A stretch of 64,000 nt of DNA from Gammaproteobacteria bacterium (GCA_965202915.1 OZ241847.1:181565-245564); one strand, 5' to 3'. Numbered from the stretch's first letter, positions 41,110-57,690 are shown. Numbers and translations are program-made. The notes: generated from the sequence alone by a model not told the origin.

Positions 41110-41186
41110 CGGGGCATGGCGCAGTCTGGTAGCGCATCTGCTTTGGGAGCAGAGGGTCGGGGGTTCAAATCCCTCTGCCCCGACCA
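41110..41186 (+). tRNA. tRNA-Pro (anticodon UGG)
   Basis: Cloverleaf CGGGGCA...TGCCCCGACCA. Anticodon loop TTTGGGA and T-loop GTTCAAAT. Confidence 0.9.
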
Positions 41187-41222
41187 AATTTATCCGGCAC
41201 CGGGTCGGTCCGAGATTGACGT

Positions 41223-41299
41223 GCGCCTGTAGCTCAACCGGATAGAGCACCGGCCTTCTAAGCCGGGGGTTAGAGGTTCGAGCCCTCTCGGGCGCGCCA
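41223..41299 (+). tRNA. tRNA-Arg (anticodon UCU)
   Basis: Cloverleaf GCGCCTG...CGGGCGCGCCA. Anticodon stem-loop CCGGC-CTTCTAA-GCCGG. Confidence 0.9.
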
Positions 41300-41381
41300 T
41301 GAATGGGTCGGAACCGGATCGCGATCCATATTACAAAATGGAGCATGGCCAATGTCCGCAGTAATTTTGTCGATCAACGTT

Positions 41382-41458
41382 GGTGACTGTAGCTCAGTTG
41401 GTAGAGCCCCGGTTTGTGGTACCGGCCGTCGTGGGTTCGAGTCCCATCAGTCACCCCA
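41382..41458 (+). tRNA. tRNA-His (anticodon GUG) with encoded G-1
   Basis: GGTGACTG...CAGTCACCCCA with anticodon loop TTGTGGT. The extra 5' G is typical of bacterial tRNA-His. Confidence 0.9.
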
Positions 41459-41478
41459 GTTTATCGATTTGTTTCGAT

Positions 41479-41554
41479 GGGCCGTTAGCTCAGCTGGTAG
41501 AGCAGGGGACTCTTAATCCCAAGGTCATAGGTTCGACCCCTATACGGCCCACCA
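41479..41554 (+). tRNA. tRNA-Lys (anticodon CUU)
   Basis: GGGCCGT...ACGGCCCACCA with anticodon loop CTCTTAA and T-loop GTTCGAC. Confidence 0.9.
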
Positions 41555-41669: not shown

Positions 41670-44600
41670 ATGATTGAGGTAACGTACGTGACTGAGATAG
41701 GAATGGATACATATCGCACTGGGCACAAACTCCCGACTGGCCTGGGTTCCGGGGCTACCCCCCCCCCCCCCCCCCCCCCCCCGCATCCAGAGGGCCCTCG
41801 CGGGTACTTCAAGTATAAGTGCTTCGCTTTACCCCGCCGGATATTTTCGCTCCTCGGTCTGCTTGCGCTGGCTTTGTTGCCGCCGCAGTCCCTGGCGCAG
41901 ACTACTACTACCTATTCCAGTAACGACACGCCGGTTAATATACAGCGGGGCTTTGACTTTAATAACTTCGGCCCGCCTGCAGACAGTAATATAATAATCA
42001 CAGACGATAGGACTATAAGTACGATCTCTGTCTCTCTTGATATAAATTATCCTGTTGGGTCAGGACTTACTATTGAGCTGAGAGCGCCCGATGGTTCCAA
42101 TATCATACTTGTTGCTGATGCGTTCAGCCGCTTTATGCCGACCTACACTGAAACCTCCGGACTTGTAGCGCTTGTCGGTACCCGCACAGCCGGCATGTGG
42201 AGGTTGAGGGTCAGGTCACAGGAACCATTCCGAGGCATGATAAACAGTTGGTCCATAAGCGTTACCTCGCCGGGCGCCGCCCCGACCTTCGGTACTGAGA
42301 CCATCTCCCCCCAGCAGTACGCCACTGAGGGCGCCATCACCCCGTTGACCCTGCCGGCGGCCACCGGCGGTGATGGTACGCTCAGCTACAGCATTGTTGA
42401 ACCCCTGCCGGATGGGCTGTCATTTGACGCCACCACCCGCATTCTAAGCGGCATACCGAGCGCCGGCACTGAACAAGCGGCCTCGCGCTATACCTACCGG
42501 GCCGAGGATAGCGATGGTGACGTAGCGGGTTTATTGTTCACCATCGCGATTAGACCCAGAGTGACCTTTGGCAGTGCGACCATCGCCCCCCAGAATTACA
42601 GCACCGGTGCACCCATCACCCTGCTGACCCTGCCGGAAGCCAGCGGCGGCAACCCGCCGCTCAGTTACAGCATTGTTGAAGCCCTGCCGGATGGGCTGAC
42701 ATTTGACGCCACCACCCGCACCCTGAGCGGTACACCGGAGGCCGGACAACCAGCCTTGACCTATACCTACCGGGTGACGGATACCGTTAACATAACGGCA
42801 GATTTGACCTTCACCATCGAGATTACAGACACCCCGGTCGCCATGGACTTCACGGCGGACCTGTACCGAGACCCTGACGTATTCACAACGCCCACCGTCA
42901 CCATCGACTTTAACGATTTGATTGCTGATGGCACCACCTCTGATGCGGACTTGGTGGTGACCCTCATGGACTTTACCAACCCCAGCGTCATGCTGGTCAG
43001 TGGCGGCGAGATCGATGCCGCCACTGACGTCCTGACCCTGGACAGTACCAAGCTGCTGGAAGTCTCCAGCGTCGCCGGCACCGATCTCGCCCCCCATACG
43101 TTCCGCTATACCGTGACCGACGAGGGCCGCAATACCGCGACCGCCAACCTGACCCTGCGCATCGATGAGCGGCCAACCCTTTCCTATATTAATACCGAGT
43201 TTAACGTATCCGGTCGATTCATCATGTTGGGCACGGAGCCTAGCGGCGGGCGTGAACTTCTGACGCCCACGAACAGCCACACCCCGCATGGCGAGGAATT
43301 GAGAGTTGTTGCAGTGCCTAATCTTGCCAATTCTAATTTTAGGAGGCGTTTTGATCCCGTTGACGGTCGGACCATTAATGTGCTCTATACGTTTACTCCC
43401 GGCTTTACCGGTCGCGTCAGCGGCACGTTCACCGTAGGTTTATACGCCACGGCCAACTCTATTGCCAACACCATCATCCCGCTGATGAATGCCGACGTTG
43501 TTGCCGGAGACCTGCTCATCTCTGCCAGCGCAACCTTCACCTTCATTGTCCCCAGCGCCCCACCGGTGCTCACGCCGCCCGTCGTGGCCAACCCCTATCC
43601 GCCCAACCAGGAGATTGAACTGCGCTTCAGCGCCACCGATGCGGAAAACCATGCACTCAGCTTCTCCCTGGAGGCAGTTACGGGCAGTCCCCGTACCCTG
43701 CCGGCCAATGCAACCTTTGCCCCGACCGAGGCACAAGCACCCCCGGCCACCGCCACCTTCACCTGGACCCCCACCGGCGCGGACGCGGGCACCTACCGCT
43801 TTAACGTCGTCGCCACTGAAACCACGACCGCGCTCAATACAGCGCCGGCCACCACCCGCTTCCAGGTCATGCTGGTCATCGCATCGCCGCTCACCTTCAG
43901 TGGCACCACCAGCGGCGCGGTCACCGAGAACGCCCGGACCAACACCGCCGGCGGCACCCTGATGATTGAGGACCTGGCAGGTGGCGACGAAAACTTTGCG
44001 GTACAAAACGAGGTCGGCACCTACGGCACCTTCTCCATTAATGCCAACGGCGTCTGGACTTACACCCTGGACAATGCCGACGACGACACCAATGCGCTGG
44101 CCGAAAGCACCACCGTCACCGACGTCTTCACCGTCGCGGCCAATGCCCGGCCCAGCGCCACCCAGGACGTTACCATTACCATCACCGGCGCCAACGACGC
44201 CCCCACCGCCACCATCAGCGCACCGCTGAACAACGTCGAGGTCGGCACCAGTACCGTGGTCACACTCACCGGCACCGGCAGCGACCCGGACACCGGCGAC
44301 GCGATCACCCGCTATGCGTGGAGCGCCAGCCCCGCCCAGGGCAGCTTTGCCGATGCCTCCATGGCCGACACCACCTGGACCGCACCGTCTGGCGTGGGGA
44401 ACGTCGTCCTGACCCTGACGGTCACCGACGGCAACGACGCCACCGACAGTGCCACCATTACCGTCCGAGTGGTGCCGGTACCGGTCACCATCACCGGCGA
44501 CGTCATCGGTGCCGTGACCGAAGACCGGGGTGGCTTCAACCGAGCGATGGGCGACCTGAACATTACCACCAGGGCCACCTTGAGCACCTTCGTCCCGCAA

Positions 44601-47291
44601 ACCGACGTATCCGGCACCTACGGTACCTTCTCCATTAATGCCGACGGCATGTGGACCTACGACATCGACAATAGTCGTGCCGCCACCCAGAACCTGGCCG
44701 AGGGTGCCATGGCCGACGACGTCTTCACCGTCGTCGCGGCCGCCCGCAACACCGCCACGGCAATCGTCACCATCACCGTCACCGGCACCAATGAGCAGCC
44801 CACCGCCACCATCAGCGCCCCGACGAACGGTGCGACGGTGAATGCCGGTGTCCCGGTCCCGCTCACCGGCACCGGCACCGACGTCGACACCGGCGACTCA
44901 ACCCTTTTAAGTTACCAGTGGAGTACCACGTCCCCGACCCAGGGCAGTTTCGCCAATGCCACTCAGTCCACCACCACCTGGACCCCGTCGGACACTGCGG
45001 TGGACACCGACGTCACGCTGACCCTGACCGTCACCGATGCCAGCGGCGCCGCCAATGACTCCGCAACCGCCACGGTCACCGTCCGGGTAACGGAAGCAAC
45101 GCTCACCATCAGCGGCGACACCGCGGGCGCGGTCACCGAAGATGATGACGCCAGCAACGTCGCGAGCGGCGCTCTGGGCATTACCACCCCCCTCGCTGAC
45201 GACACCTTTGCGGCACAAAACGAGGTGGGCACCTACGGCACCTTCACCATCGCTACCAACGGCGTCTGGAGCTACACCCTCAACGACGACGATGAAGACA
45301 CCAATATGCTGGCCGAAGGCGCCCCCACCGTCACCGACGTCTTCACCGTCACGGCCAATGCCCGGCCCAGTGCCACCCAGGACGTCACCATTACCATCAC
45401 CGGTGCCAACGACGCCCCCACCGCCACCATCAGCGCACCGCCGAACAACGTCGAGGTCGGCACCAGTACCGTGGTCACACTCACCGGTGCCAACAGCAGC
45501 GACCCGGACACCGGCGACGCGATCACCCGCTATGCGTGGAGCGCCAGCCCCGCCCAGGGCAGCTTTGCCGATGCCTCCATGGCCGACACCACCTGGACCG
45601 CACCGTCTGGCGTGGGGAACGTCGTCCTGACCCTGACGGTCACCGACGGCAACGACGCCACCGACAGTGCCACCATTACCGTCCGGGTGGTGCCGGTACC
45701 GGTCACCATCACCGGCGACGTCATCGGTGCCGTGACCGAAGACCGGGGTGGCTTCAACCGAGCGATGGGCGACCTGAACATTACCACCACGGCCGTCTTG
45801 AGCACCTTCGTCCCGCAAACCAACGTATCCGGCACCTACGGCACCTTCTCCATTAATGCCGACGGCATGTGGACCTACGACATCGACAATAGTCGTGCCG
45901 CAACCCAGAACCTGGCCGAGGGCGCCATGGCCGATGACGTCTTCACCGTCGTCGCGGCCGCCCGCGCCACCGCCACGGCAATCGTCACCATCACCGTCAC
46001 CGGCGCCAATGAGCAGCCCACCGCAAGCATCAGCGCACCGACGGACGGTGCGACGGTGAATGCCGGCGTCCCGGTCGCGCTCACCGGCATCGGTACCGAC
46101 GTCGACACCGGCGACCCGGCCAGTCTGAGTTACCAGTGGAGTACCACGCCCCCGAACCAGGGCAGTTTCGCCAATGCCACCCTGGCCACCACCACCTGGA
46201 CCCCGTCGGACACCGCGGTGGGCACCGACGTCACGCTGACCCTGACCGTCACCGATACCAGCGGTGCCGCCAACGACACCGCGACTGCCACGGTCACCGT
46301 GCGGGTAACGGCAACGACGCTCACCATCAGCGGCACCGCCACCACCGGCGCGGTCACCGAAGATGATAACGCCAACAACACCGCAAGCGGCGACCTGGAC
46401 ATAGCCACCACCCTCGCTGACGCCACCTTCGTCCCGCAAACCAACCTGTCCGGCGTCTACGGCTTTTTCTCCATTGATGCCGACGGCAACTGGAATTACC
46501 GGCTGGACAACGATGACGTCGACACCCAGGCCCTGGCCTCGGACGCCACCGCCCCCGACGTCTTTACCGCACGGGCCAGTGCCCGGCCCGGCGTCACTCA
46601 GGCCGTCACCCTCACCATCACCGGCGCTAATGACGCGCCCACCGTGACCATCGATACGCCGGCGGATGACACCGCAACCAGCGTCGGCAACCCGGTCACG
46701 CTCACCGCCACCGGCGCTGACGTCGACACCGGCGATGAGGCTGGTCTGCGCTACCAGTGGAGTACCACGCCCCCAAACCGGGGCAGTTTCGGCAATGCCA
46801 CCGCCGCCAACACCACCTGGACTGCACCGACCACCCCCGGTAACGTCATGCTGACCGTGACCGTCACCGATACCAGCGGCGCCGCCAACGACGCCGCTAC
46901 CGCTACCGTCACCCTCATCATCGACACGACGATGTTCCTGCCGGACCTGAGCGGCAACGGTGATTTGCAGGCGTCGGACGCCCAGATATTGTATTACCTC
47001 GGGCTGCCACCGTCGCCGAGCAGGACTCGTTTGCTGGATAGTCTGGGGGTCTCGGCCGACATGGTCGACCAGGTCAACGCCCGTGCGGAAAACTGGCAAA
47101 ATCAGGAGCCGCTGTCGGACCTCAACGGTAACGGCGAAAGGGACCGGCAGGACGCCCAAATTCTTTACTACACGGCACGCTTTGGCCCCCTGCTGGAGGT
47201 CAGCCCGACACTGTTGCAGGCGGTGCTGGGTGATTTGGCGAGGAACCCGACCGCGGCACTGAACAACGCCCGCAGGTTGCTTAACCGCTGA
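41670..47291 (+). CDS. Giant secreted repeat protein (putative adhesin, 1873 aa)
   Basis: Sec-type signal RRIFSLLGLLALALLPPQSLA-Q. P-domain pattern at about 41990-42270 (ISVSLDINYPVGSGLTIELRAPDGS...GMWRLRV...INSWSISV). Ig-like repeats (LSYSIVEPLPDGLSFDATTRILSG). Six modules alternate a VCBS-like motif (GTYGTFSINANGVWTYTLDN...ITGANDAPTA) with a PKD-like motif (TGTGSDPDTGD...YAWS...LTLTVTD). The C-terminus holds a dockerin-like EF-hand pair. Confidence 0.9.
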   Translation: MIEVTYVTEIGMDTYRTGHKLPTGLGSGATPPPPPPPPHPEGPRGYFKYKCFALPRRIFSLLGLLALALLPPQSLAQTTTTYSSNDTPVNIQRGFDFNNFGPPADSNIIITDDRTISTISVSLDINYPVGSGLTIELRAPDGSNIILVADAFSRFMPTYTETSGLVALVGTRTAGMWRLRVRSQEPFRGMINSWSISVTSPGAAPTFGTETISPQQYATEGAITPLTLPAATGGDGTLSYSIVEPLPDGLSFDATTRILSGIPSAGTEQAASRYTYRAEDSDGDVAGLLFTIAIRPRVTFGSATIAPQNYSTGAPITLLTLPEASGGNPPLSYSIVEALPDGLTFDATTRTLSGTPEAGQPALTYTYRVTDTVNITADLTFTIEITDTPVAMDFTADLYRDPDVFTTPTVTIDFNDLIADGTTSDADLVVTLMDFTNPSVMLVSGGEIDAATDVLTLDSTKLLEVSSVAGTDLAPHTFRYTVTDEGRNTATANLTLRIDERPTLSYINTEFNVSGRFIMLGTEPSGGRELLTPTNSHTPHGEELRVVAVPNLANSNFRRRFDPVDGRTINVLYTFTPGFTGRVSGTFTVGLYATANSIANTIIPLMNADVVAGDLLISASATFTFIVPSAPPVLTPPVVANPYPPNQEIELRFSATDAENHALSFSLEAVTGSPRTLPANATFAPTEAQAPPATATFTWTPTGADAGTYRFNVVATETTTALNTAPATTRFQVMLVIASPLTFSGTTSGAVTENARTNTAGGTLMIEDLAGGDENFAVQNEVGTYGTFSINANGVWTYTLDNADDDTNALAESTTVTDVFTVAANARPSATQDVTITITGANDAPTATISAPLNNVEVGTSTVVTLTGTGSDPDTGDAITRYAWSASPAQGSFADASMADTTWTAPSGVGNVVLTLTVTDGNDATDSATITVRVVPVPVTITGDVIGAVTEDRGGFNRAMGDLNITTRATLSTFVPQTDVSGTYGTFSINADGMWTYDIDNSRAATQNLAEGAMADDVFTVVAAARNTATAIVTITVTGTNEQPTATISAPTNGATVNAGVPVPLTGTGTDVDTGDSTLLSYQWSTTSPTQGSFANATQSTTTWTPSDTAVDTDVTLTLTVTDASGAANDSATATVTVRVTEATLTISGDTAGAVTEDDDASNVASGALGITTPLADDTFAAQNEVGTYGTFTIATNGVWSYTLNDDDEDTNMLAEGAPTVTDVFTVTANARPSATQDVTITITGANDAPTATISAPPNNVEVGTSTVVTLTGANSSDPDTGDAITRYAWSASPAQGSFADASMADTTWTAPSGVGNVVLTLTVTDGNDATDSATITVRVVPVPVTITGDVIGAVTEDRGGFNRAMGDLNITTTAVLSTFVPQTNVSGTYGTFSINADGMWTYDIDNSRAATQNLAEGAMADDVFTVVAAARATATAIVTITVTGANEQPTASISAPTDGATVNAGVPVALTGIGTDVDTGDPASLSYQWSTTPPNQGSFANATLATTTWTPSDTAVGTDVTLTLTVTDTSGAANDTATATVTVRVTATTLTISGTATTGAVTEDDNANNTASGDLDIATTLADATFVPQTNLSGVYGFFSIDADGNWNYRLDNDDVDTQALASDATAPDVFTARASARPGVTQAVTLTITGANDAPTVTIDTPADDTATSVGNPVTLTATGADVDTGDEAGLRYQWSTTPPNRGSFGNATAANTTWTAPTTPGNVMLTVTVTDTSGAANDAATATVTLIIDTTMFLPDLSGNGDLQASDAQILYYLGLPPSPSRTRLLDSLGVSADMVDQVNARAENWQNQEPLSDLNGNGERDRQDAQILYYTARFGPLLEVSPTLLQAVLGDLARNPTAALNNARRLLNR
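41758..41782 (+). repeat. Homopolymeric tract of 25 C inside the 5' end of the giant gene (translated as Pro8)
   Basis: Direct count: ccc at 41758-41760 plus 22 c at 41761-41782. It lies downstream of all candidate start codons (41670, 41688, 41703) and upstream of the signal peptide. Confidence 0.95.
43890..46925 (+). repeat. Intragenic tandem repeat array: about 609-nt modules organised as about 1.2-kb super-repeats (period 1215/1218 nt), two copies nearly identical
   Basis: Off-frame track ORFs recur at an exact +1218 offset (44318 vs 45536; 44312 vs 45530; 44638 vs 45856). Hand alignment of 44121-44330 with 45336-45548 shows only a few substitutions and one 3-nt indel. Confidence 0.9.
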
Positions 47292-47303
47292 TCCGGTCAC
47301 GGA

Positions 47304-47435
47304 GATGAGGAAAAGCAGTGCCTGACCGTATGCAGGCGGTGAGGTCAGGACTGTACGCTCAATCCGCGCACCGGCGCCCGCAAATGCAGACGGGTTTGCA
47401 GGCAGTTCGGTGAGGAATGCTTTGCTGACTTATGA
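47304..47435 (+). pseudogene. Nonsense-mutated remnant of the C-terminal half of the twin-CX3CX6C protein gene
   Basis: Hand alignment with 51301-51420 gives 9 mismatches in 120 nt. The Trp codon TGG of the intact copy is TGA here (47340-47342). There is no start codon or signal peptide upstream. Confidence 0.75.
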
Positions 47436-47660
47436 GAGTTGTTCACCATACTTAGGCGGGTCATTGCCGCGACCGGTTTCTCCGCGGGGGCGCCAATAGG
47501 GTGAATTTGAGCGGCCTCACCGATGCAGGAACTATACGCCCCTATCGGTGCATTTCGAGGTTGCCATGACGATAAGACGGCAGTGAAAGTTACGATCTTA
47601 TACTGATTTGGCTTCTCAGTTTTCTCAACCGCTAATGACTATTTCTTTTAAGTGGTTCTT

Positions 47661-49271
47661 TTAAGTGGGGTCAATGATTCCTTCGCCAATCATGCGAATC
47701 GCGGTAACACTGGGGACAAAAAAGTAATCTCCTCCCCTTGTTTCCACAAAGCGAGGGAGGTTGCTGCAGAATAAAGGAGCATCCTGACCATTTTCAGGAT
47801 CGGCTTCGATCATGGTCCGGCCCGCTGGTTTTCCATTCTCAGTTGAATGGTTTCCTAATAAAGGGTCCTTGTCGTTTGATAGTTTAAAGTCATTTCCATA
47901 GTTGATCCATTGCTGCTGCAAAAATTCAAATTGCCTTTTAATGCTGGTATTGAGTGCCATAAAAATGATGCCGTGTTCTCCATCGTCCTTAGTCGGATCT
48001 TTTACTTCTCCATACGGCAGGCCGCGCCTCGCGATACGACGCCGATTGTCCAAGGCTCCGGGTGTGTTAAATGGTTTTTCCTTTGCCTTGTCTTTCACAA
48101 ACTCTAAATATCCACGAGGGTTATTTCTGCGAACGTGGGCACCGAAGGGACATCCTGCTCCATCCAGGTCGTGGTTGTAATCAAAGGCAACGAGTCTTTT
48201 TTTAAGCTCTTCTAACTCTTCCTGAGCCTGTTTGGCGGCCGCTTTATTATTGGCGGCCCTGGCTGCGTCTCGTTTAGCCCTGGTCTCACTGATAGTTGTA
48301 ATGAATTGATCTGCCTCTTCCCGGGTGGGAAAGGTGGTGATAGGGGCTCCATTTTTCCACCTTCCTGCAAATTTGGCGGCAAGCATATCTTTTCCACCCG
48401 GCAAATCTTTGCCTTTCTCTTCTAAATAGCGGTTAAAACTGCCTACGTTTTCATGCAGTTTTCGATAAACCATGAACGTTCCATTGAAAGAGAGCAGGCG
48501 CGGCTCAGGGGCGATGGGGTATTCCTGCAATTCATCTCGATGTCCTAAAATGAATTCTCCGGTTCCCAAGGGCTCCCATCCCTCACGAGTAGAGGGATCT
48601 AAACGGGTGGGCTTTCCTCCGCCTATGACACTGATGCCGGTTTTGATACATCCTTCAAAATAGGGGTCGCTAATTCCATCGGTATAACCGAAGTGTTCTT
48701 TAGGGGTGGGATTACCGTTTTCATCAAAAACGGCGGAGGCCGCTTGATACTCTTGATTCTCCCCCTGGTGTCCCAGCAGTTGTTCCACGCCTCCTTTTGT
48801 GCGGTCTTTGTGATCACAAATTACTTGATAGCGTTCTTTTAACGCGTTCTTATTTTGGGCGTTGATTGTGATTAAAATATCCACCGGGTTCTTCCAAATC
48901 GGGTCCCAGTTTTCCGGTGCACTGGCTTCATCGTCTCCCAGAATATTGATGCGGTCCTTCATTCCCATAATAAATTCTTCAGGAAAGCTATTCAGCGATT
49001 TAGTGGGCACGCCTAAGTGTTTTAATCCTTGAAAGGTAAAAGCGATATTTGTTGTAATTTGCGGGATTTTTGTTTTGTCTTCCTCTGAGCTTTTAGGATT
49101 CCATGGGGCGCCGGTTGTAATGAGATCAAGCAGGTTAAGGAGAAATTGGCGACCTGCGTCGCCTTGATGGACCCGATAGAAAACATAGCGGGCATAGGGG
49201 AAACCAAAACGGCCGTATCCTTTGATCACGTTGCCCTGAATATCATGCAAATCGAGTGCCGTGTTTGTCAT
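47661..49271 (-). CDS. DyP-type haem peroxidase (large, 536 aa, no signal peptide)
   Basis: Contains LHDIQGNVIKGY, the GXXDG motif FGYTDGISDP, the proximal-His region GAHVRRNNPR, the distal-Arg region RRGLPYG, and FEFLQQQW. It has a ~30-aa Ala/Lys/Glu coiled-coil insert. Confidence 0.9.
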   Translation of the reverse strand: MTNTALDLHDIQGNVIKGYGRFGFPYARYVFYRVHQGDAGRQFLLNLLDLITTGAPWNPKSSEEDKTKIPQITTNIAFTFQGLKHLGVPTKSLNSFPEEFIMGMKDRINILGDDEASAPENWDPIWKNPVDILITINAQNKNALKERYQVICDHKDRTKGGVEQLLGHQGENQEYQAASAVFDENGNPTPKEHFGYTDGISDPYFEGCIKTGISVIGGGKPTRLDPSTREGWEPLGTGEFILGHRDELQEYPIAPEPRLLSFNGTFMVYRKLHENVGSFNRYLEEKGKDLPGGKDMLAAKFAGRWKNGAPITTFPTREEADQFITTISETRAKRDAARAANNKAAAKQAQEELEELKKRLVAFDYNHDLDGAGCPFGAHVRRNNPRGYLEFVKDKAKEKPFNTPGALDNRRRIARRGLPYGEVKDPTKDDGEHGIIFMALNTSIKRQFEFLQQQWINYGNDFKLSNDKDPLLGNHSTENGKPAGRTMIEADPENGQDAPLFCSNLPRFVETRGGDYFFVPSVTAIRMIGEGIIDPT

Positions 49272-49335
49272 AGGTCTTTTACCTGGCTATAAGAGATTTT
49301 TTGTTTCATCCTGTTTTGTCTTGATTTAATCGGGA

Positions 49336-50034
49336 TCATGGGGTGGTTGAGCCTGCTCGCCACGTTGGCCCTGATGTGTTATCGGGTTGAGTTCGCGCGA
49401 CAAATTCTTGAAAGGCTTTTTGCAAGTCTGCGTCACTTTTCCCCTGTTGTTGGTACACAAACCTGGAAAATTCCTGTTTTAAATAGAGGCCTTTCAGATG
49501 GGCCGCCAATGGCTCGTCGTCTTCCTCTGTTTCAGGATCTACTGAACCGTTAAAGAAAAAAGTGGTTTCCACCTGGCACTTTTTGATGTATTCCACAAAA
49601 CCTGTTTCATCCTTGACTTTGTGAAAACCCACACAGTGTTCAAAAACGTGTTCTAATTCTTTTGAGGCCGCATTCCACGCTCCTTCCAGATAGGCGTCCA
49701 AATCTCCGTAAAAATTGGAGGCAAATACTAAATATTTTGATTTTAAATGATCTTCTAAAACTGAAATCTTTCCATAAAAAATGTATTGAAACCATCTTTT
49801 AAACAGCCCCCAATCTTTTACCGCAGGTTCTCCTCCCTGATAGGGGACGTCATTCAAAATATAAAATCGGCATAAATAGGTATTGGGGACTTTTGCCATC
49901 GGGCTTTTTTCATTGGTTCCCAAATCCTGCAGGCGACCGCGCATTATGGACGCATAGGAAGTATTTTGATGACTTCCATTTTTGATTGGACACAGGGTGG
50001 TAAGCCCATAGGCTTTTTTATTGATGTTTGGCAT
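49336..50034 (-). CDS. Uncharacterised protein, paralogue 2 of the DyP-cassette pair (232 aa)
   Basis: It shares three colinear motifs with the upstream ORF: M-x-N-I-x-x-KAY...P-I; R-(W/F)-x-I-(V/L)-N-x-x-P; Y-(M/L)-x-F-x-SNF-x-G-x4-Y. No TM helix or signal peptide. Confidence 0.7.
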   Translation of the reverse strand: MPNINKKAYGLTTLCPIKNGSHQNTSYASIMRGRLQDLGTNEKSPMAKVPNTYLCRFYILNDVPYQGGEPAVKDWGLFKRWFQYIFYGKISVLEDHLKSKYLVFASNFYGDLDAYLEGAWNAASKELEHVFEHCVGFHKVKDETGFVEYIKKCQVETTFFFNGSVDPETEEDDEPLAAHLKGLYLKQEFSRFVYQQQGKSDADLQKAFQEFVARTQPDNTSGPTWRAGSTTP

Positions 50035-50061
50035 TTTGCTCTTTGGTTTTTTGCTCTTTGG

Positions 50062-50703
50062 TTAAGGGGTCTCTTTTCGTCTGCGATTCTCAACGGCTTC
50101 ACTGGCTAAACTGACTATGGGAGTGGGAGCCATTACGCTGAGATCATGTTGTAAATCGGTAAGTAATTGATTGTATTGTTTTCGAAATTCCCCCGGCGAA
50201 CAACTTCCGGTTCCCGCAACAAACTTATTGAGTGCCACCTTCACTTTTTTGCCTGATTTGACGTCGTTAGAGGAAGCGAGCGGATAGGCATTATAATAAT
50301 GATTAGTCCACACTTGATTATAGGTAATGTAATTATAAAATGCCTGCTCAGGAATGGAATTGGGGTAACGAATATTTTTAGCCCAGAAAAGGTCCAAGCC
50401 GTAGGGAATGGCCGTAGAAAAGGAATCAACGTATTGTTCCCAACTTCCATTAAAATTGCTGAAAAAAAACATGTAGTTATAATTCAGATCTTCCCTGGGT
50501 TGTTCCTCTGACAGCCGAGGAAATTTATTGACTATGGTCCAGCGGGCATAATGGATTAATGACAGGGTTTGTAACCCGGCCCGGCCAGACTTAAAGAACT
50601 TTGTTCCTCCCACCCAAAAAATGATTTTATTCAACCACGTCAGCCTTTTACGAATGGGGGTGACCACGTTCATTGCATAGGCTTTGCCTGCAATATTGGA
50701 CAT
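50062..50703 (-). CDS. Uncharacterised protein, paralogue 1 of the DyP-cassette pair (213 aa)
   Basis: Contains MSNIAGKAYAMNVVTPI, LIHYARWTIVNKFP and NYMFFFSNFNGSWEQYVDSF. It is aromatic-rich with no TM helix or signal peptide. It lies 27 nt upstream of its paralogue. Confidence 0.7.
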   Translation of the reverse strand: MSNIAGKAYAMNVVTPIRKRLTWLNKIIFWVGGTKFFKSGRAGLQTLSLIHYARWTIVNKFPRLSEEQPREDLNYNYMFFFSNFNGSWEQYVDSFSTAIPYGLDLFWAKNIRYPNSIPEQAFYNYITYNQVWTNHYYNAYPLASSNDVKSGKKVKVALNKFVAGTGSCSPGEFRKQYNQLLTDLQHDLSVMAPTPIVSLASEAVENRRRKETP

Positions 50704-50723
50704 TTTTTCTCCTTATTCTCTAA

Positions 50724-51008
50724 TTATACGTCAAATTCAATATTTAGATGAGTGGGAAAAGCACCTTGCATTTGTAGTTTCCCGGCGTCTCCCTCGGCTC
50801 GTCGTAAATTTTTTTGTTTTAACAGGGGGAGAAGAATTCCGGGAATTTGCACTTGGTTGATATATTCACCAAAACAAGTATGTATGCCATAGCCATAGTG
50901 CATATATTCGTGGGGTGGGCGATCAAGACGAAAGGAATCAGGATTTTGAACGTCGTTGCGATCACCCCAATAGTTCAAAAGACTCATGCATTTATCCCTG
51001 TATTTCAT
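50724..51008 (-). pseudogene. C-terminal stub (94 aa) of a cytochrome P450
   Basis: Contains the PERF-like NPDSFRLDRP and the Cys-ligand loop HYGYGIHTCFG, but nothing of the preceding ~300 residues. An in-frame TAA lies 9 codons upstream of the ATG, inside AT-rich promoter DNA. Confidence 0.75.
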
Positions 51009-51027
51009 CCTTGGTATTGATAATAAT

Positions 51028-51055
51028 AGTATAGCTTTAAACTATAAATTGTCAA
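51028..51055 (-). promoter_or_regulatory. Near-consensus sigma70 promoter driving the P450-stub/paralogue/DyP cassette
   Basis: The minus strand reads TTGACA (51055-51050), a 16-nt spacer, then TATACT (51033-51028). It lies about 20 nt upstream of the ATG at 51008. Confidence 0.55.
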
Positions 51056-51104
51056 TTACTTTGAAGGGCTGAGTCATCCGGCGATGCTCGCCCTGGTGGT
51101 AATG

Positions 51105-51113
51105 TGCTATAAT
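51105..51113 (+). promoter_or_regulatory. Extended -10 promoter element (TGCTATAAT) of the small Cys-rich protein gene
   Basis: A perfect TATAAT at 51108-51113 is preceded by TGC. It lies 38 nt upstream of the ATG at 51151. The -35 region is weak. Confidence 0.45.
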
Positions 51114-51150
51114 CTCTGCAATGGGAATATCTGTAGGAAATGATTCATCA

Positions 51151-51420
51151 ATGAAACTTAACAAATTTTTTGTGCCGTTGTTTGCGTGTGTTTTGTTTAT
51201 CGCGTTCCAGAATGACGTTAATGCGGATGAACAACCCCGGACGCCCGCCACTGAGTCCAACCCTCTTGTTTTGCCCGATGAGGATCAGGATGCGGAAGAG
51301 CAGTGCCTTACCGTATGCAGGCAGTGGGGCCAGGATTGTACCCTCAATCCGCGCACCGGCGCCCGCAAATGCAGACGGGTTTGCAAGCAGTTCGGTGAGG
51401 AATGCTTTACTGACTTGTGA
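51151..51420 (+). CDS. Small secreted twin-CX3CX6C protein (89-aa precursor)
   Basis: ATG at 51151 with AGGAAA 10 nt upstream. Signal peptide MKLNKFFVPLFACVLFIAFQNDVNA, then an acidic linker. Next come CLTVCRQWGQDC and CRRVCKQFGEEC, an internal duplication of C-x3-C-x6-C. Confidence 0.7.
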   Translation: MKLNKFFVPLFACVLFIAFQNDVNADEQPRTPATESNPLVLPDEDQDAEEQCLTVCRQWGQDCTLNPRTGARKCRRVCKQFGEECFTDL

Positions 51421-51826
51421 GTATGGACCAGACTCCGTAGTCTGTGTCATCGGTTGTAAGCGGTTCGTATTCGCCATCCATCCGGAAACCATTGTCGCAG
51501 GTATATTGCAGACCGCCGTCATAGAGAAAACCAAATTCATTGTCATCCTTTGACCTCGACGCTGACCCGTTTGTATGCAGGTACGGATTGGGGACGCCGG
51601 TGTTAGCCTTACAGGTCTCCGGGAATGGCCTTAAAACCATCCTGCAAACCGACTTATCCCTTTAACGCGGGCCGCTGCGATGATGCCGCCGTGCGGGAGA
51701 TGGACGGCGGCGGGTTACTATGCTAATATTATGCGCATGCCTTGGAGGGCATGATGTGTTTGTTTGCCATGGATTTGTTGCCGGATTGGCATTGTTTCCG
51801 GATAGTTTATTTTTTGGAGAGACGTT

Positions 51827-53116
51827 TTGACGATTAAACCGCCGGCTGAGGGTGAAAAAATCACTATTCACCAGGGAGTACTCAAGGTGCCGGATAAACC
51901 TGTGATCCCTTATATTGAAGGCGACGGCATTGGGCCGGACGTCTGGCGCGCCACTGAAAAGGTATTGGACGCGGCGGTGCAACGGGCTTATTCCGGTGAC
52001 AGGGAAATCAAGTGGATGGAGGTCTATGCCGGTGAAAAGGCCCACCAGTTGGCCGGTAACTGGTTGCCGGATGACACATTGGACGCCTGTCGTGAATATC
52101 TGGTGGCGATTAAAGGCCCGCTGACCACGCCGATAGGCGGTGGCTTTCGGTCGCTCAACGTGGCACTCAGGCAGATACTGGACCTGTACGTTTGTCTGCG
52201 GCCGATTAGATGGTTTAACGGCGTGCCCTCGCCGATTAAGAACCCGGCATTGGTTGATATGGTGATCTTTCGGGAGAATACCGAGGATATTTACGCCGGT
52301 ATTGAGTTTGAAACCGGTTCCGAGGAGAATGCCCGCTTCCTTGAATTTTTTAAAGATACGTTTCCCACCCTGTTTCAGAAGATTCGCTTCCCTGAATCAT
52401 CGGGCATAGGGATTAAACCGGTTTCCAAACAGGGGACGGCAAGACTGGTTAGGGCGGCCATTCAGTATGCGGTTGATAATGGGCGCAAGAGTGTGACCAT
52501 GGTGCATAAGGGCAATATTATGAAATTTACCGAGGGCGCGTTTCGTAACTGGGGCTATCAACTGTCTGAATCGGAGTTCCCGGAGCACACCTATAGCTGG
52601 GAGCAATGGCAACGTACCGCCGCGGAGAAGGGTTCCGGGGCCGCCAATGAGGAGCAGGAGCAGGCGCTGTCGGCCGGTAAGATCCTGATTAAGGATGCGA
52701 TTGCCGATATTACCCTGCAACAGGTGCTTACCCGTCCCTCTGAATTTGACGTGATCGCGACGATGAATCTGAATGGCGATTATTTGTCCGATGCGCTGGC
52801 GGCGCAGGTTGGCGGCATAGGCATTGCCCCGGGGGGTAATATTAACTATGACACCGGCCATGCGATTTTTGAAGCCACTCATGGCACTGCCCCCAAATAT
52901 GCCAATTTGGATAAGGTCAATCCGGGTTCATTATTACTTTCCGGTGAGATGATGCTGCGTTATCTGGGCTGGACGGAGGCCGCGGACCGGGTTATTGGCG
53001 CCATGGATAAAACCATTGCGGACAAGACCGTGACTTATGATTTTGCCCGGCTGATGGATAATGCCAAAGAAGTAAAATGCAGTGAATTTGCGGACGTTCT
53101 GATAAGTAATTTATAG
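51827..53116 (+). CDS. icd: NADP-dependent isocitrate dehydrogenase
   Basis: 429 aa with a TTG start preceded by GGAGAG. Contains [14 protein letters not shown], the AceK-target region [12 protein letters not shown], and [10 protein letters not shown]. Confidence 0.96.
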
Positions 53117-53126
53117 GGGCAATATC

Positions 53127-54872
53127 ATGCCGTCACAAGCGCATGGTGACTTAATAGCGGAATGCTCGCAACTTATCTATGATGGTTTCATCGATTATAA
53201 TAATCGCTTCCATCGTATCACCCGCCGGGCCCAGACCCGGTTTGAAAAACGCGACTGGAAAGGTCATCAGCGGGACGTGGTTGAGCGCGTCGATCTCTAC
53301 GAAAAATCAGTGCGCCGCGTGGTGCTTGAACTGCGCCGTACCATGGGCGCCCATATTAATGATTACCAGCTTTGGAATGAAATAAGAAATTACTTTGGTG
53401 AACGTCTGCTTGAAGTGCCGGACGTCAGTTTTATCAAGACGTTTTTTAATTCAACGACCCGCCGCATCTTCGGCACGATAGGCACTGATCCCAAGCTGGA
53501 GTTTATCGCCGCCGATTCGGTCGATGATCAGGAAATGGCCGCGTCGCTCAATATCCGGCGCTATCCCTACTGGGATTCGGTAAGACGCATCTTTGAAACC
53601 ATACTGGCCGATTTTTCATTTCGTAAACTGCCCTATAATGATCTGGGAAGTAACGCCGAACATATTGCCGCGGTGATAAAGGCTTATTTCAATACCGACC
53701 AATCCCTGGCCATAGGCATACGCCGATTTGAATTTATTAATTCGTTTTTCTACCAAAACGCCCGTGCCTATCTTGTTGGCAGAATTATTCTGGCCGACAG
53801 CATTGTGCCTCTTGTTATTGCATTCAAGAATGAGGACGACGGGGTTTGTGTTGACGCGGTATTACTTACTGAGCCGGAGATCAGTGTCGTATTTGGCTAT
53901 ACCCGGTCTTATTATTTTGCCGATCCCAATTCGGTAATAGGCGCGGTTTATTTCCTGCATTCGATACTCAAAAGCAAGCCCATTGATGAGTTGTACACAG
54001 TGCTGGGACGATTGCGTCAGGGCAAAACCGAGCGCTATAGAATCTTTACCCAGCATATGCGCCGGAGCAGCGATCAATTTGTTCACGCCGCCGGCGATAA
54101 GGGCCTGGTGATGATCGTCTTTACCTACCCCTCCTATGATTTGGTGTTTAAGGTAATACGCGATAAATTTGGTTATCCAAAGGCCATGTCGCGCAAAGAC
54201 GTGATCGGCAAATATAAATTGGTATCGGAACACGACCGTGCCGGGCGTTTGATCGATACGCAGGAGTTTCGCAATCTTGAATATAAGATCGATCGTTTTT
54301 CGGATGCATTGCTGGACGAGTTATTATCCGAAGCGGCCGACACCGTCGAGATTGAGGGCGATAATCTGCTGTTGGGTCACGTTTATATAGAAAGACGGGT
54401 GCGGCCGCTGAATCTGTATATTAATGAGGTGGCGGATGACAAGGCCGGTTTGGCGATCATGGATTACGGCCAGGCGATCAAGGATTTGGCCAATACCAAT
54501 ATTTTTACCGGTGATTTGTTGCTAAAGAATTTTGGCGTAACCAAGCATAATCGGGTGGTCTTTTATGATTATGATGAGGTTTCATTGATCACCGAATGCA
54601 ATTTTCGTGATATTCCCGAAACCAATAATATGGACGATGAAATGCAGGCGGATCAATGGTATTACGTCGGCGAAGACGATATTTTTCCGCAGGAGTTTAT
54701 CAAGTTTTTATCGATGAATGAGAAATTGCGGCGGACGTTTATGAAATATCATGGCGATCTGCTGAGTGCCGATTACTGGCGCGCGATCAAGGCCCGGCTT
54801 TTGGCCGGGGAAGCGTCACCGGTGATCCCGTATGAAAGCTCGGTGATCACCGGCGTTCCCGCGCGACAATGA
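53127..54872 (+). CDS. aceK: Isocitrate dehydrogenase kinase/phosphatase
   Basis: 581 aa with full-length AceK-like colinearity (FDGFIDYNNRFHRITRRA..., ...FPQEFIKFL...). It lies 10 nt downstream of icd. Confidence 0.93.
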   Translation: MPSQAHGDLIAECSQLIYDGFIDYNNRFHRITRRAQTRFEKRDWKGHQRDVVERVDLYEKSVRRVVLELRRTMGAHINDYQLWNEIRNYFGERLLEVPDVSFIKTFFNSTTRRIFGTIGTDPKLEFIAADSVDDQEMAASLNIRRYPYWDSVRRIFETILADFSFRKLPYNDLGSNAEHIAAVIKAYFNTDQSLAIGIRRFEFINSFFYQNARAYLVGRIILADSIVPLVIAFKNEDDGVCVDAVLLTEPEISVVFGYTRSYYFADPNSVIGAVYFLHSILKSKPIDELYTVLGRLRQGKTERYRIFTQHMRRSSDQFVHAAGDKGLVMIVFTYPSYDLVFKVIRDKFGYPKAMSRKDVIGKYKLVSEHDRAGRLIDTQEFRNLEYKIDRFSDALLDELLSEAADTVEIEGDNLLLGHVYIERRVRPLNLYINEVADDKAGLAIMDYGQAIKDLANTNIFTGDLLLKNFGVTKHNRVVFYDYDEVSLITECNFRDIPETNNMDDEMQADQWYYVGEDDIFPQEFIKFLSMNEKLRRTFMKYHGDLLSADYWRAIKARLLAGEASPVIPYESSVITGVPARQ

Positions 54873-54878
54873 GGCCGG

Positions 54879-56273
54879 TTAATTGCCGGTTGGGTGATAC
54901 CAGGCCAGGTGTTCGTGTAATTTGACGACTTCACCAATAATAATCATGCTGGGCGGCTTCACCTGCCGTTGTTTTGCCATAGCCGGCAGGGTTTGCAGGC
55001 TGGCGATATGGACTTTTTGACTGGCGGTGGTGCCCCGCTCGATGATCGCCGCGGGCAGATCCGGGTCCAGGCCGCGATGGATTAATTCATGACTCAATTT
55101 TTCAACGCCGTGCATGCCCATATAGATCGCAATAGTTTGTTGCGGCTGTATCATTGCGTCCCAATTCAGTGACAGCTTTTCGTCCTTCAGGTGGCCGGTG
55201 ACAAATAAGCAGGATTGGGCGAAATCCCGGTGGGTGAGCGGGATGCCGGCATAGCTGGCGCAGCCACTGGCGGCAGTGATGCCGGGCACGACCTGGAACG
55301 GCACGCCCGATTTGGATAGTAATTCTATTTCTTCGCCGCCGCGACCAAAAATAAATGGGTCGCCGCCTTTTAGGCGCAATACCCGTTTCCCCTGTCTGGC
55401 CAGGTCGACCAGTAATTGATTGATTTCAGCTTGTGGAATGGTGTGTTGATCCCGCTGTTTGCCGACAAATAAACGTTCGGCGTCTTTACGCACCAGTGCC
55501 AGCACTGCTTTTGCCACCAGACGGTCGTACAGGACAACGTCGGCCTGCTGCATCAGGCGCAGGGCTCGGAAGGTTAATAAATCCGGATCGCCGGGGCCGC
55601 CGCCGACCAGATAGACCTCGCCCTCGGTGCTGACGTTATCATTGTCCTGAGTGAGATAGTGTTCCAGGGTGGTGATCGCGGCCTGCTCCTGGCCGGCGTA
55701 TAACATCTCTTCAACCGGGCCTTGTAATACCTGTTCCCAGAAGCGCCGTCGTTGTCGCATATCGGTAAAACGCCGGCGCACCCGGTCGCGAAATCGGGCA
55801 ATAATTTTGGCCAGTTTGCCGTAAGAGGCGGGAATGTAGGTTTCCAGACGGGCGCGCAGCAGACGCGAGAGTATGGGCGATACTCCGCCGGAGGATACGG
55901 CAATGAAAACCGGGTCGCGATTAACGATAGACGGCATAATAAAGGTGCAGAGTTCGGGATTGTCAACGACGTTCACCGGTATGTTTTCCGCCCGCGCCAA
56001 TTCGGACACCCGTCGGTTGACTCGGAGGTCGTTGCTGGCGGCGATCACCAGGCAATTGCCGGTTATTAATTCGGCCTTGAATCCGGATGCCACGGTTTTG
56101 ATCCGCTGCTGCTCGGCCAGCGTCTCGATGGCGGCGTTAAACATGGGAGAGACTACGGTGACGTTTGCTCCAAACTCGACCAGTTGGGTTATTTTACGCA
56201 GCGCGACTTCACCGCCGCCGACCACCAGACAGGGGCGGCCGCTGATCTGCATGGATATCGGTAGATAGGCCAT
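54879..56273 (-). CDS. cysG: Siroheme synthase (precorrin-2 dehydrogenase/ferrochelatase plus uroporphyrinogen-III C-methyltransferase)
   Basis: 464 aa. The N-terminal Rossmann segment [11 protein letters not shown] and the C-terminal SUMT domain [15 protein letters not shown]...[15 protein letters not shown] are present. Confidence 0.95.
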
Positions 56274-56383
56274 TATTGTCTATGCTGATACGGTCTTGAG
56301 CGGCACTGTTATAGTGTGTAATAGTATATTGTATCATCAGGAGGGTGATCACCCTTTATAAAGCGCACTATCGGAGGGTTTCG

Positions 56384-57583
56384 ATGCAAAAGGCGGTCAG
56401 AGATTTTTCTTCCAGTGGTGGGGTTTCCTATAAGGAGATTCCATTGCCCGGCGTTGACAATGGCGAGGCGCTTGCGCGAATTGCGGCCAGCATCAACGTG
56501 TCGGGTAACCCGCATTGGGATCTGATATTGGAGCAAAAAAAGAGCGGCGGCAGTCACCCTGTACTTTATCTGCATTCGGTGGATATGACGGCATTGCGGG
56601 AATATCTGCAAACCCTGGTCAAGGAAACCTCGGATGAGGTACTGGTGGACGGCATTTTGAACGCGATAGAGAACGTCAGAAGTTATGGAGTACGCGGCGG
56701 GCGACGGGTATATGCGGGGTATAACGCCGAACGAAAAGTGGCGGGCAGGAAAGATAAGGAAAAGGCGAGGGGGAAATATTTTTATGCCGCCGGCGGTGAT
56801 TATAATGAGACCAGGAATCAATATCCCTGCGAATATGAAAATAAAATCATCTGCCGGGATAGCGGCGAGTTCCTCAAAAATCTGCCCGATAACTGCGTTG
56901 ATTTGGTATTCACCTCCCCCCCGTATAACTTTGGTCTGGACTATGCGGCGGATGAGGATGACGCCACCGATTGGAGTGCTTATTTTGACAGGCTTTTTTC
57001 GGTATTGGACGAGTGCATACGGGTTTTAGTATTTGGGGGGCGGCTGATCATCAACGTGCAGCCGCTGTATTCCGATTATATTCCGTCGCATCATATTATC
57101 AGCAATTATCTGGCGAACGAAAAAAAACTAATATGGAAAAGCGAAATTCTGTGGGAGAAAAATAATTACAATTGCAAGTACACGGCCTGGGGAAGCTGGA
57201 AGAGTCCTTCCAATCCGTATATGAAGTACAGTTGGGAATTTCTTGAAGTCTTTTGCAAGGGTTCACTAAAGAAACCGGGGGAAAAAGACAACGCCGATAT
57301 ATCCGGGGATGATTTCAAGCAATGGGTTTATGCAAAATGGTCTATAGCGCCGGAAAGAAATATGACCCGGTACGGTCATCCCGCGATGTTTCCGGAGGAG
57401 TTGGCGCATCGGGTTTTGACCCTGTTCAGTTTTAAGGACGATATGGTCCTGGATCCGTTCAATGGCGCGGGAACGACCTGCGTGGCGGCTAAAAAAACCG
57501 GGCGCCGTTATCTGGGCATAGACGTTTCAAAGGAATACTGTGTTGTGTCCGAGCGGCGGCTTGCTGAGCTTTTGGATTTGTAA
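56384..57583 (+). CDS. Orphan beta-class DNA methyltransferase (SPPY type, N4-cytosine or N6-adenine) with an unassigned N-terminal ~150 aa
   Basis: Motif IV FTSPPYNFG precedes motif I VLDPFNGAGTT, which is the beta permutation. ATG at 56384 with GGAGGG upstream; the track ORF opens at GTG 56345. No restriction enzyme gene is adjacent. Confidence 0.85.
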   Translation: MQKAVRDFSSSGGVSYKEIPLPGVDNGEALARIAASINVSGNPHWDLILEQKKSGGSHPVLYLHSVDMTALREYLQTLVKETSDEVLVDGILNAIENVRSYGVRGGRRVYAGYNAERKVAGRKDKEKARGKYFYAAGGDYNETRNQYPCEYENKIICRDSGEFLKNLPDNCVDLVFTSPPYNFGLDYAADEDDATDWSAYFDRLFSVLDECIRVLVFGGRLIINVQPLYSDYIPSHHIISNYLANEKKLIWKSEILWEKNNYNCKYTAWGSWKSPSNPYMKYSWEFLEVFCKGSLKKPGEKDNADISGDDFKQWVYAKWSIAPERNMTRYGHPAMFPEELAHRVLTLFSFKDDMVLDPFNGAGTTCVAAKKTGRRYLGIDVSKEYCVVSERRLAELLDL

Positions 57584-57690
57584 ATTTATAGACCTGAATT
57601 TTTTAAGAGTTTGGGTCCGCATTTGTTCAAAAAAGCCGTGGCAACAATTCAGCCACTGACGCCGGGGCGGATTGATTTTATACAGGGCCC

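Follow-up and report, generated by a model that had tools for sequence, protein, structure and literature searches.

A horizontally acquired, low-GC operon of a widespread unannotated module that joins a class V DyP-type peroxidase to two paralogous proteins and, ancestrally, a cytochrome P450

DyP-type haem peroxidases are known to be encapsulin cargo and to work with the EfeUOB/FepABC iron uptake and Sco-ECuC-DtpA copper/GlxA maturation systems (PMC8197335, PMC9719856). The physiological substrate of the class V enzymes is unknown, and the roles of DyPs are an acknowledged open question (PMC10820274, PMC8197335). The published idea nearest to the locus described here is DyP subclass V4, which consists of fusions of the P450-TM-DyP type (TM, transmembrane); its authors raise an analogy with the Psi-factor oxygenases, in which a dioxygenase/peroxidase is combined with a P450 (Yoshida and Sugano 2022, PMC9719856). 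We analysed a 64,000-nucleotide (nt) stretch of DNA from a gammaproteobacterium (GCA_965202915.1, OZ241847.1:181565-245564), referred to in full as the window, with coordinates counted from its first letter. The window carries a low-GC, acquired operon of a widespread and unannotated four-gene module encoding a cytochrome P450, two proteins that we designate A and B, and a class V DyP; the P450 has been lost from this copy.

Oxylipin pathways also use two-enzyme tandems, for example the mini-catalase-lipoxygenase fusions of corals and cyanobacteria, the Nostoc 10S-dioxygenase with its catalase-related lyase, and the fungal dioxygenase-P450 (Ppo) fusions; in these, a small catalase-related protein or a P450 is joined to, or stands beside, the enzyme that provides its hydroperoxide. 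To our knowledge, those catalase-related mini-proteins that have been characterised isomerise or cleave hydroperoxides and are not catalases, and every characterised mini-catalase uses fatty-acid or lipid hydroperoxides that come from a fused or neighbouring oxygenase. This biology is partly covered in PMC5617202 and PMC13049297.

The operon occupies the minus strand and comprises four open reading frames (ORFs): a P450 remnant (50724-51008, 94 residues); protein A (50062-50703, 213 residues), the first of the A/B pair; protein B (49336-50034, 232 residues), the second of the pair and a paralogue of A; and DyP (47661-49271, 536 residues), a class V (C-type) haem peroxidase with no signal peptide. 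In operon order they are separated by 20, 27 and 64 nt, and both the coordinates and the gaps reproduce those of a preliminary description of this DNA. The near-consensus promoter read there was also recovered: a predicted sigma-70-type site (TTGACA-16 nt-TATACT, 51055-51028, minus strand), ~20 nt upstream of the P450-remnant ORF, matches the consensus at 11 of 12 positions and is the top site within 47200-51500, an interval whose total of promoter-like sites is not above that of shuffled sequence. Upstream of an intact P450 gene in a related contig, L003, the sequence matches the window's promoter region at 96.5% identity, and the site presumably served the P450-A-B-DyP operon as its native promoter. 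A GGAG ribosome-binding site stands 8 nt upstream of the protein A gene.

Linkage among the genes was surveyed from both ends. A genome set (one genome per species) was seeded with the protein A alignment and gave 276 matches, of which the best 80 were analysed (L009-L088); a reverse set was seeded with the DyP alignment on metagenome contigs and holds relatives that are 39 to 62% identical (L093-L172). A, B and DyP were adjacent and colinear on one strand in 77 of 77 A-seeded loci with enough DNA, the other 3 ending at a contig edge. From the DyP side, A-B-DyP was present in 64 of 64 loci with enough upstream DNA, and in 11 of the 16 shortened loci B remains visible where the contig ends. In the loci examined, the linkage between A/B and DyP is obligate and reciprocal. 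The window has the same layout, with A, then B, then a long class V DyP on one strand at gaps of 27 and 64 nt; elsewhere the gene boundaries often overlap or abut, which suggests translational coupling. The genome set includes Gammaproteobacteria (Halomonas, Vibrio penaeicida, V. nigripulchritudo, Endozoicomonas, Psychromonas), Oxalobacteraceae, Betaproteobacteria, Methylococcaceae, Bacteroidota (Mucilaginibacter, Arsenicibacter), Caldithrix, and members of the Myxococcota, Planctomycetota, Acidobacteriota, Cyanobacteria and Nitrospirota. Halomonas heilongjiangensis, V. nigripulchritudo, Herminiimonas and Kordiimonas are among the cultured carriers. The preliminary description had proposed a dedicated, three-protein cytoplasmic peroxidase module. 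Its dedicated character stands, in these loci and in the A-B-DyP fusions described below; the module was ancestrally one of four genes, and we infer both the complex of A, B and DyP and its cytoplasmic location.

Natural fusions join the same partners. A-B fusion proteins are numerous (370 to 460 residues), always with A first. Two clusters extend the fusion to DyP (P0295, 937 residues; P0325/P0397, 964 residues) and four extend it to a catalase-related domain (P0394, P0321, P0392 and P0383; about 590 to 640 residues). A single protein, P0280, joins nSTAND1 to an A domain. One A-B fusion variant, P0251 (562 residues), has two predicted transmembrane helices within its B half, so some members of the A/B family may be membrane-anchored.

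Divergent clades carry further arrangements. The order P450-AB(fused)-DyP was found in L089, L092 and probably L090 (Frankiaceae), and AB(fused)-DyP in L175. Kordiimonas marina, K. lipolytica and an unrelated metagenome-assembled genome (L091, L173, L174) share the order patatin-P450-A-B-DyP, in which a gene for a patatin-like phospholipase heads the operon; in L174 the reading frames overlap. Patatin was considered as a general component of the module and rejected, as it is absent from 160 of 160 main-clade loci. A 7TMR-DISM-GGDEF gene adjoins the Kordiimonas-type operon in L173 and L174.

The first ORF of the window's operon, which the preliminary description called a P450 stub, is indeed derived from a P450, and its origin can now be stated. 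The cassette recurs, 99.6% identical, in contig L003, where the P450 is intact and has 444 residues, and positions 404-1480 of that contig (1,076 bp) are missing from the window between 50969 and 50964. The first codons (MSLLNY) are thereby fused in frame to residues 366-444, including the Cys-ligand loop (YGYGIHTCFG), at 97% identity to the L003 protein, and ~360 residues are gone. The same deletion is present in L002 and L004. The remnant gives weak NCBIfam matches to P450 C-terminal regions; of the complete fold of ~400 residues, with its I-helix, ExxR and Cys-ligand loop, it retains only the last 79 and the first few codons. The 94-residue ORF is therefore what a 1,076-bp in-frame deletion has left and is not a functional P450. 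Comparison of the loci indicates that the module was ancestrally a four-gene operon, P450-A-B-DyP, and that the stub is all that remains here of the fourth gene. The I-helix of this P450 family reads GAIPTTSK, with Pro at the usual acid position, and no conserved redox-partner genes were found near the P450.

The place beside the module is filled in more than one way. A P450 adjoins it in 41 of 160 loci (21 in the genome set, 20 in the metagenome set) and a catalase-related protein of 340 residues in 34 of 160 (22 and 12, respectively), counts that are not phylogenetically independent; the two occur together in one locus only (L125). The 340-residue protein scored above the Pfam Catalase gathering threshold in two of the four sequences tested. 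This alternation of P450 and catalase-related protein suggests that the two are functionally interchangeable.

The window's peroxidase is a DyP, as the preliminary description had held. The four motifs quoted there, DIQGN, GYTDG, AHVRRNNPR and RRGLPYG, lie at residues 10, 195, 378 and 415, and Pfam returns DyP_N (E 6e-14, 52.9 bits; cut-off 27.5) and Dyp_perox_C (E 7e-5, 23.1 bits; cut-off 20). Its score against TIGR01413, 89.6, is below the cut-off of 100.5. Among PDB entries, Deinococcus radiodurans DrDyP (8re3, E 6e-48) ranks first, ahead of fungal D-type DyPs, Anabaena AnaPX and Amycolatopsis DyP2 (class C/D). Among 73 module DyPs, the distal Asp, D198, of the GXXDG motif (GYTDG, 195-199) is invariant, as are the proximal His, H379 (GAHVRR), and the distal Arg, R416 (RRGLPYG), both of which align with DrDyP. 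By profile, motifs and catalytic residues, it thus reads as an ordinary class V DyP.

None of the usual DyP partners accompanies it. Neither encapsulin nor EfeU/EfeO genes occur among the window neighbours examined, and the N-terminus, MTNTALDLHDIQG, lacks the twin-arginine (RR) motif, in line with the preliminary description. There is no copper chaperone gene either, and the enzyme is probably cytoplasmic. Nor does it look like encapsulin cargo, as no shell gene adjoins it and its C-terminus reads ...GIIDPT. The recurrent genes near the module in the 160 related loci (P450, catalase-related and signalling) include no shell gene; the remaining neighbours were clustered, not family-typed.

The module enzymes have features of their own. 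The window's DyP has a helical insertion at ~320-360 and an IDPT C-terminus (47661-47672), and nearly all main-clade DyPs (L009-L088) share an invariant Cys374, the helical insertion and a C-terminal [IV]DPT. The DPT tail may serve to dock A/B. The invariant Cys stands five residues before the proximal His. The DyPs of the divergent clades examined (the Kordiimonas type, L091, and those beside a fused AB, L089, L090 and L092) have neither the DPT tail nor the 320-360 insertion.

Proteins A and B belong together and to no family in current databases. BLASTP aligns them at 22% identity (E 2e-6) and profile-profile comparison with hhalign gives a probability of 98% (E 1.5e-13 over 178 columns), by which measures they are true paralogues. 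Protein A has 1,828 homologue clusters (clustered at 90% identity), 60 to 76% identical, all labelled hypothetical and without a Pfam domain; protein B has 689, all unannotated or hypothetical. When 1.84 billion representatives were scanned in full with HMMER, 1,787 clusters scored at E <= 1e-3; the wider A/B superfamily comprises about 1,800 clusters at the 50% identity level. The single A and B sequences have no match in Pfam or NCBIfam (E up to 1) or PADLOC; all 46 and 44 members of the two alignments gave only scattered chance matches in Pfam at E up to 10, and the A and B profiles found nothing meaningful among PDB sequences. The preliminary description had called the two paralogues that it could assign to no family, and this survives each of these searches.

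Both families are strongly conserved. The protein A alignment has 54 invariant columns, which take in the N-terminus MSNIAGKAYA, IHYARW, SNFNGSWxQYxDSF and many Tyr and Trp residues; its conserved motifs are MSNIAGKAYAMN, SLIHYARW and SNFNGSWxQYVDSF. Across the superfamily, the A domain conserves H51 (82%), W55 (91%) and N83, N85 and Y91 (89 to 95%), and the best-conserved polar residues of all sit in the B domain. Protein B conserves Y53-x-x-R56, C134 and C153; in divergent B domains, position 53 is His in 35 of 35 (it is Tyr in the window's clade), R56 is kept in 35 of 35 and C134 in 34 of 35. The window's protein B and its two closest relatives carry insertions at ~72-93 and ~165-172 that are missing from the rest of the family, both of low model confidence.

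The structure models point, at most, in one direction. AlphaFold2 gave a good model of B (predicted local distance difference test [pLDDT] score 83.8) and a poor one of A (pLDDT 60.5), and neither matched the PDB in Foldseek at E <= 0.001. The best sensible matches of both (E 0.4-0.5, TM-score 0.4-0.53) are PeHNL, 4-methylmuconolactone methylisomerase and CC_2267, all of them small dimeric alpha+beta-barrel proteins, and the predicted strand order, beta-alpha-beta-beta-alpha-beta, agrees with a ferredoxin-like core. We treat a ferredoxin-like (dimeric alpha+beta barrel) fold for A/B as a lead and not as a result. Tubulin and Arp2/3 rows were discarded as noise (TM-score < 0.2). The possibility that A and B are a split DyP or a Cld-like pair was also rejected: hhalign against a 73-sequence DyP profile gave a probability below 1%, and DyP and Cld are absent from the top Foldseek matches of both models.

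The A-B-DyP cassette was acquired horizontally and has been recently mobile. GC content is 44.4% in segment 47437-51288 and 53.3% in the window, of which the segment is the lowest-GC 3.85-kb stretch (0.3rd percentile), and third-position GC content (GC3) is 0.41-0.46 in the A, B and DyP genes against 0.605 +/- 0.075 across 48 window ORFs. The spot counts from which the preliminary description had judged the segment AT-rich and acquired (16 G+C in 60 nt at 50281-50340 against 44 in 60 at 46021-46080) are exact. Near-identical cassettes (99.3-99.6%) are present in other genomic contexts: contig L001 carries A-B-DyP without the P450 stub between rve/IS66 and Y2-transposase genes, and in metagenome contig L002 the neighbours on the DyP side differ from those of the window. 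The case for acquisition rests on these copies and the atypical composition, together with a second compositional outlier beside tRNA genes and the footprint of a repeat, both described next.

The cassette is bracketed by a 133-nt direct repeat (47304-47436 and 51289-51421, plus strand) whose copies are 92% identical, a refinement of the 120-130 nt estimated previously. The repeat corresponds to the last 133 nt of a small ORF of 99 residues (51121-51420, plus strand). Copy 2, at one edge of the segment, is the intact 3' end of that ORF. Copy 1, at the other edge, is a 3' piece of the same ORF, pseudogenised with an in-frame TGG to TGA change, and begins 13 nt past the stop codon of a gene of 1,873 codons. 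Identity of no more than 92% between the copies, and their derivation from the 3' end of the adjoining gene, led us to reject a transposon-type target duplication or transposon end; the repeat looks like a recombination footprint, the duplicated 3' end of that small gene. The 99-residue product has a hydrophobic N-terminus and a Cys-rich C-terminus and gives a weak Conotoxin-like Pfam match (E 0.03).

The wider surroundings comprise cysS, four tRNA genes, a 1,873-residue Ig/PKD-repeat gene, the small Cys-rich ORF, icd, aceK and cysG. The tRNA genes (Pro-tgg, Arg-tct, His-gtg and Lys-ctt, at 41110-41554) lie directly upstream of the long gene (41670-47291), an adhesin-like Ig/PKD/cadherin-repeat gene with 63% GC and a GC3 of 0.775, a high-GC outlier adjoining the low-GC cassette. 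Together, the tRNA genes, the repeat gene and the cassette resemble a variable island with cysS on one side and icd on the other. An antisense ORF of 797 residues at 44907-47300 is probably an artefact of high GC. Only one other window ORF has a comparably low GC3, that at 1715-2806 (minus strand; 363 residues, 39.7% GC, GC3 0.40, no Pfam match), which alone equals the cassette in AT-richness and may also have been acquired. On both sides, L002 and the window are 98.5 to 99.3% identical, but L002 has ~3.6 kb in place of ~8 kb (60705-52723), a difference (region 52723-63105) that points to strain-level rearrangement around aceK, cysG and a DNA methylase gene. An Rfam scan of the window returned tRNAs only, and the 3' untranslated region of the DyP gene shows no unusual RNA structure (z = -1.1).

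Signalling proteins of the STAND/TIR type recur beside the module (Pkinase-AAA_16-GAF, guanylate cyclase-AAA_16-TPR, TIR_2-TPR and TPR-S), in L089, L090, L092 and Oxalobacteraceae such as L067. A cluster of GGDEF neighbours was considered as one conserved partner and set aside: single linkage had lumped response regulators and hybrid kinases together with GGDEF proteins. PADLOC 2.0 gave 0 matches for A, B, DyP, P450, mini-catalase, an A-B fusion and P0280; the neighbouring STAND/TIR genes were not scanned.

How might such a module work? The reading that we prefer, at a probability of about 0.5, is that A and B form a heterodimer bound to DyP and act as its substrate-side partner for an organic, possibly lipid-derived, peroxide. 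The A + B pair would be a pseudo-symmetric heterodimer with a ferredoxin-like alpha+beta core, docked on the cytoplasmic DyP as its obligate partner on the substrate side. The candidate functional site is the His/Tyr-x-x-Arg and Cys of B together with His51 of A. A/B would make or present an organic peroxide or an oxidisable small molecule, which the DyP haem would turn over; where a second peroxide-reactive haem enzyme is present, P450 or mini-catalase depending on the locus, it would carry out a further downstream step. In the window strain, the pathway would end at the DyP step. The likeliest class of substrate would be a fatty-acid- or lipid-derived hydroperoxide, as in an oxylipin-type pathway. 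That version, which is plausible, draws on the biology of mini-catalases and hydroperoxide-converting P450s and on the patatin-containing clade.

Several observations weigh against the substrate-partner reading. The P450 is not a core component, since the window's copy of the module can dispense with it and more than half of the loci lack it. In Foldseek the fold match of A/B falls short of significance (E 0.4-0.5), protein A is poorly modelled (pLDDT 60.5), and profile comparisons connect neither protein with DyP or with a known oxygenase. The neighbourhood of the main clade has no conserved lipoxygenase, fatty-acid dioxygenase or lipid gene; with patatin limited to one clade and missing from the 160 main-clade loci, the lipid element comes down to analogy and one lineage. 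Lastly, the recurrent signalling and STAND-type neighbours could indicate a different biology.

A bolder form of the substrate-partner reading makes A/B itself the oxygenase: it would convert a fatty acid or small molecule to a hydroperoxide, hand this to the bound DyP, mini-catalase or P450, and represent a new enzyme superfamily. We know of no hydroperoxide-supplying activity for A/B or for a DyP, and we consider this form unlikely.

Among the readings that differ in kind, a peroxide-stress module survives best, and we hold it to be somewhat less likely than the oxygenase proposal. Here DyP would detoxify H2O2 or organic peroxides in the cytoplasm, with A/B as non-catalytic accessory subunits responsible for its stability, regulation or localisation, while any neighbouring P450 or mini-catalase would add to the scavenging. 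H2O2 scavenging has been proposed for the P450-DyP fusions (Yoshida and Sugano, PMC9719856). The intact catalytic residues of DyP agree with such a role, as does the fact that the recurrent partners are all peroxide-reactive haem proteins. However, the sporadic, mobile and non-core distribution fits poorly; the mini-catalases that we know of isomerise or cleave hydroperoxides; and the conservation of A (54 invariant columns, 60-76% across phyla) and the invariant polar residues of B are more typical of catalytic or ligand-binding proteins.

Because haem b is the sole common denominator of the three partner enzymes, A/B might instead serve haem handling or maturation, either by loading haem into these partners or as a protein substrate that receives a cross-linked cofactor made by DyP. 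The His/Tyr-x-x-Arg and Cys of B and the invariant Tyr and Trp residues of A could be haem ligands or radical or cross-link sites, and the DtpA-GlxA cross-linked cofactor, cited in PMC9719856, is a precedent. A permanent 1:1 fusion of A-B to DyP or mini-catalase would nevertheless be unusual for a chaperone, and A/B show no known haem-binding motif and no family match in Pfam or NCBIfam. We find this explanation improbable, and more so than a stress role.

Just below it we place small-molecule tailoring, in which A/B would be a cofactor-free oxygenase or cyclase of the Dabb/ABM type that, with P450 and peroxidase, modifies an aromatic or polyketide-like metabolite or signal. The weak structural resemblance of A/B to Dabb-fold enzymes and the presence of a P450 among the partners are in keeping with it, as are the aminotransferase and methyltransferase genes downstream in L089 and L092 and the two-component, GGDEF and STAND signalling genes that often adjoin. 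Yet no core biosynthetic genes are conserved across the 160 neighbourhoods, and the cassette moves as a self-contained unit of three or four genes.

Finally, the existence of the nSTAND1-A fusion P0280, the TIR_2-TPR and TPR-S genes that flank the operon in L089 and L092, the AAA_16 giants that adjoin it in Oxalobacteraceae and Frankiaceae, and a patchy distribution with low GC and one copy flanked by insertion sequences could suggest that the module is the effector of a system for conflict or defence and releases a toxic oxidant or oxidised lipid under STAND/TIR control, but no PADLOC model matches any component and most loci, including the window, have no STAND/TIR neighbour, which makes this very improbable.

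Obligate, apparently co-evolving partners, natural fusions and alternative haem enzymes together offer a handle on the substrate and role of class V DyPs, and A/B constitute a large superfamily outside current family databases. DyPs are of biotechnological relevance, and a partner that determines substrate could be useful. The window itself preserves a recently mobile accessory operon caught mid-decay, with its P450 deleted. Should A/B prove to be an oxygenase, the module would be an unrecognised, mobile, bacterial oxylipin-type pathway, with the first defined substrate and partner for class V DyPs.

A literature search, with most subscription-journal papers outside its reach, found no description of A, B or the A-B-DyP module, and the closest systems share only parts of it. 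With the Dabb/ABM/EthD superfamily, A and B have in common the predicted order of the core and the best weak Foldseek matches, and they could pair as Dabb dimers do; they are, however, double the size, their C-terminal half being long and helical, and have no significant sequence or structure match to it. The A-B-mini-catalase fusions and the alternation of P450 and mini-catalase repeat the architecture of the oxylipin tandems, as does the upstream phospholipase in one clade, whereas the module has no lipoxygenase or haem dioxygenase and the putative supplier would be A/B, DyP or both; the comparison is one of working alike, not of membership.

Subclass V4 likewise couples a P450 with a class V DyP, but in the module the two are separate, soluble proteins, a P450 need not be present, and it is A and B that are constant, neither of which appears in PMC9719856. 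The characterised class V enzymes DrDyP (8RE2/8RE3), DyP2 (4G2C) and AnaPX (5C2I) share with the module DyP the fold family, the catalytic Asp, His and Arg and the absence of a Tat signal. Relative to DrDyP, the module enzyme is ~90 residues longer and has the 320-360 helical insertion, Cys374 and the [IV]DPT C-terminus; it is also always encoded with A and B, and partners of this kind are not reported for characterised class V enzymes in the literature examined. As in the known DyP partner systems, the peroxidase resides in a dedicated operon with specific partners; in place of an encapsulin, EfeU/EfeO, a Tat signal or a copper chaperone, however, those partners are two novel paralogous families. 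The module is a DyP operon with two new partner families, built around a peroxidase of a known class.

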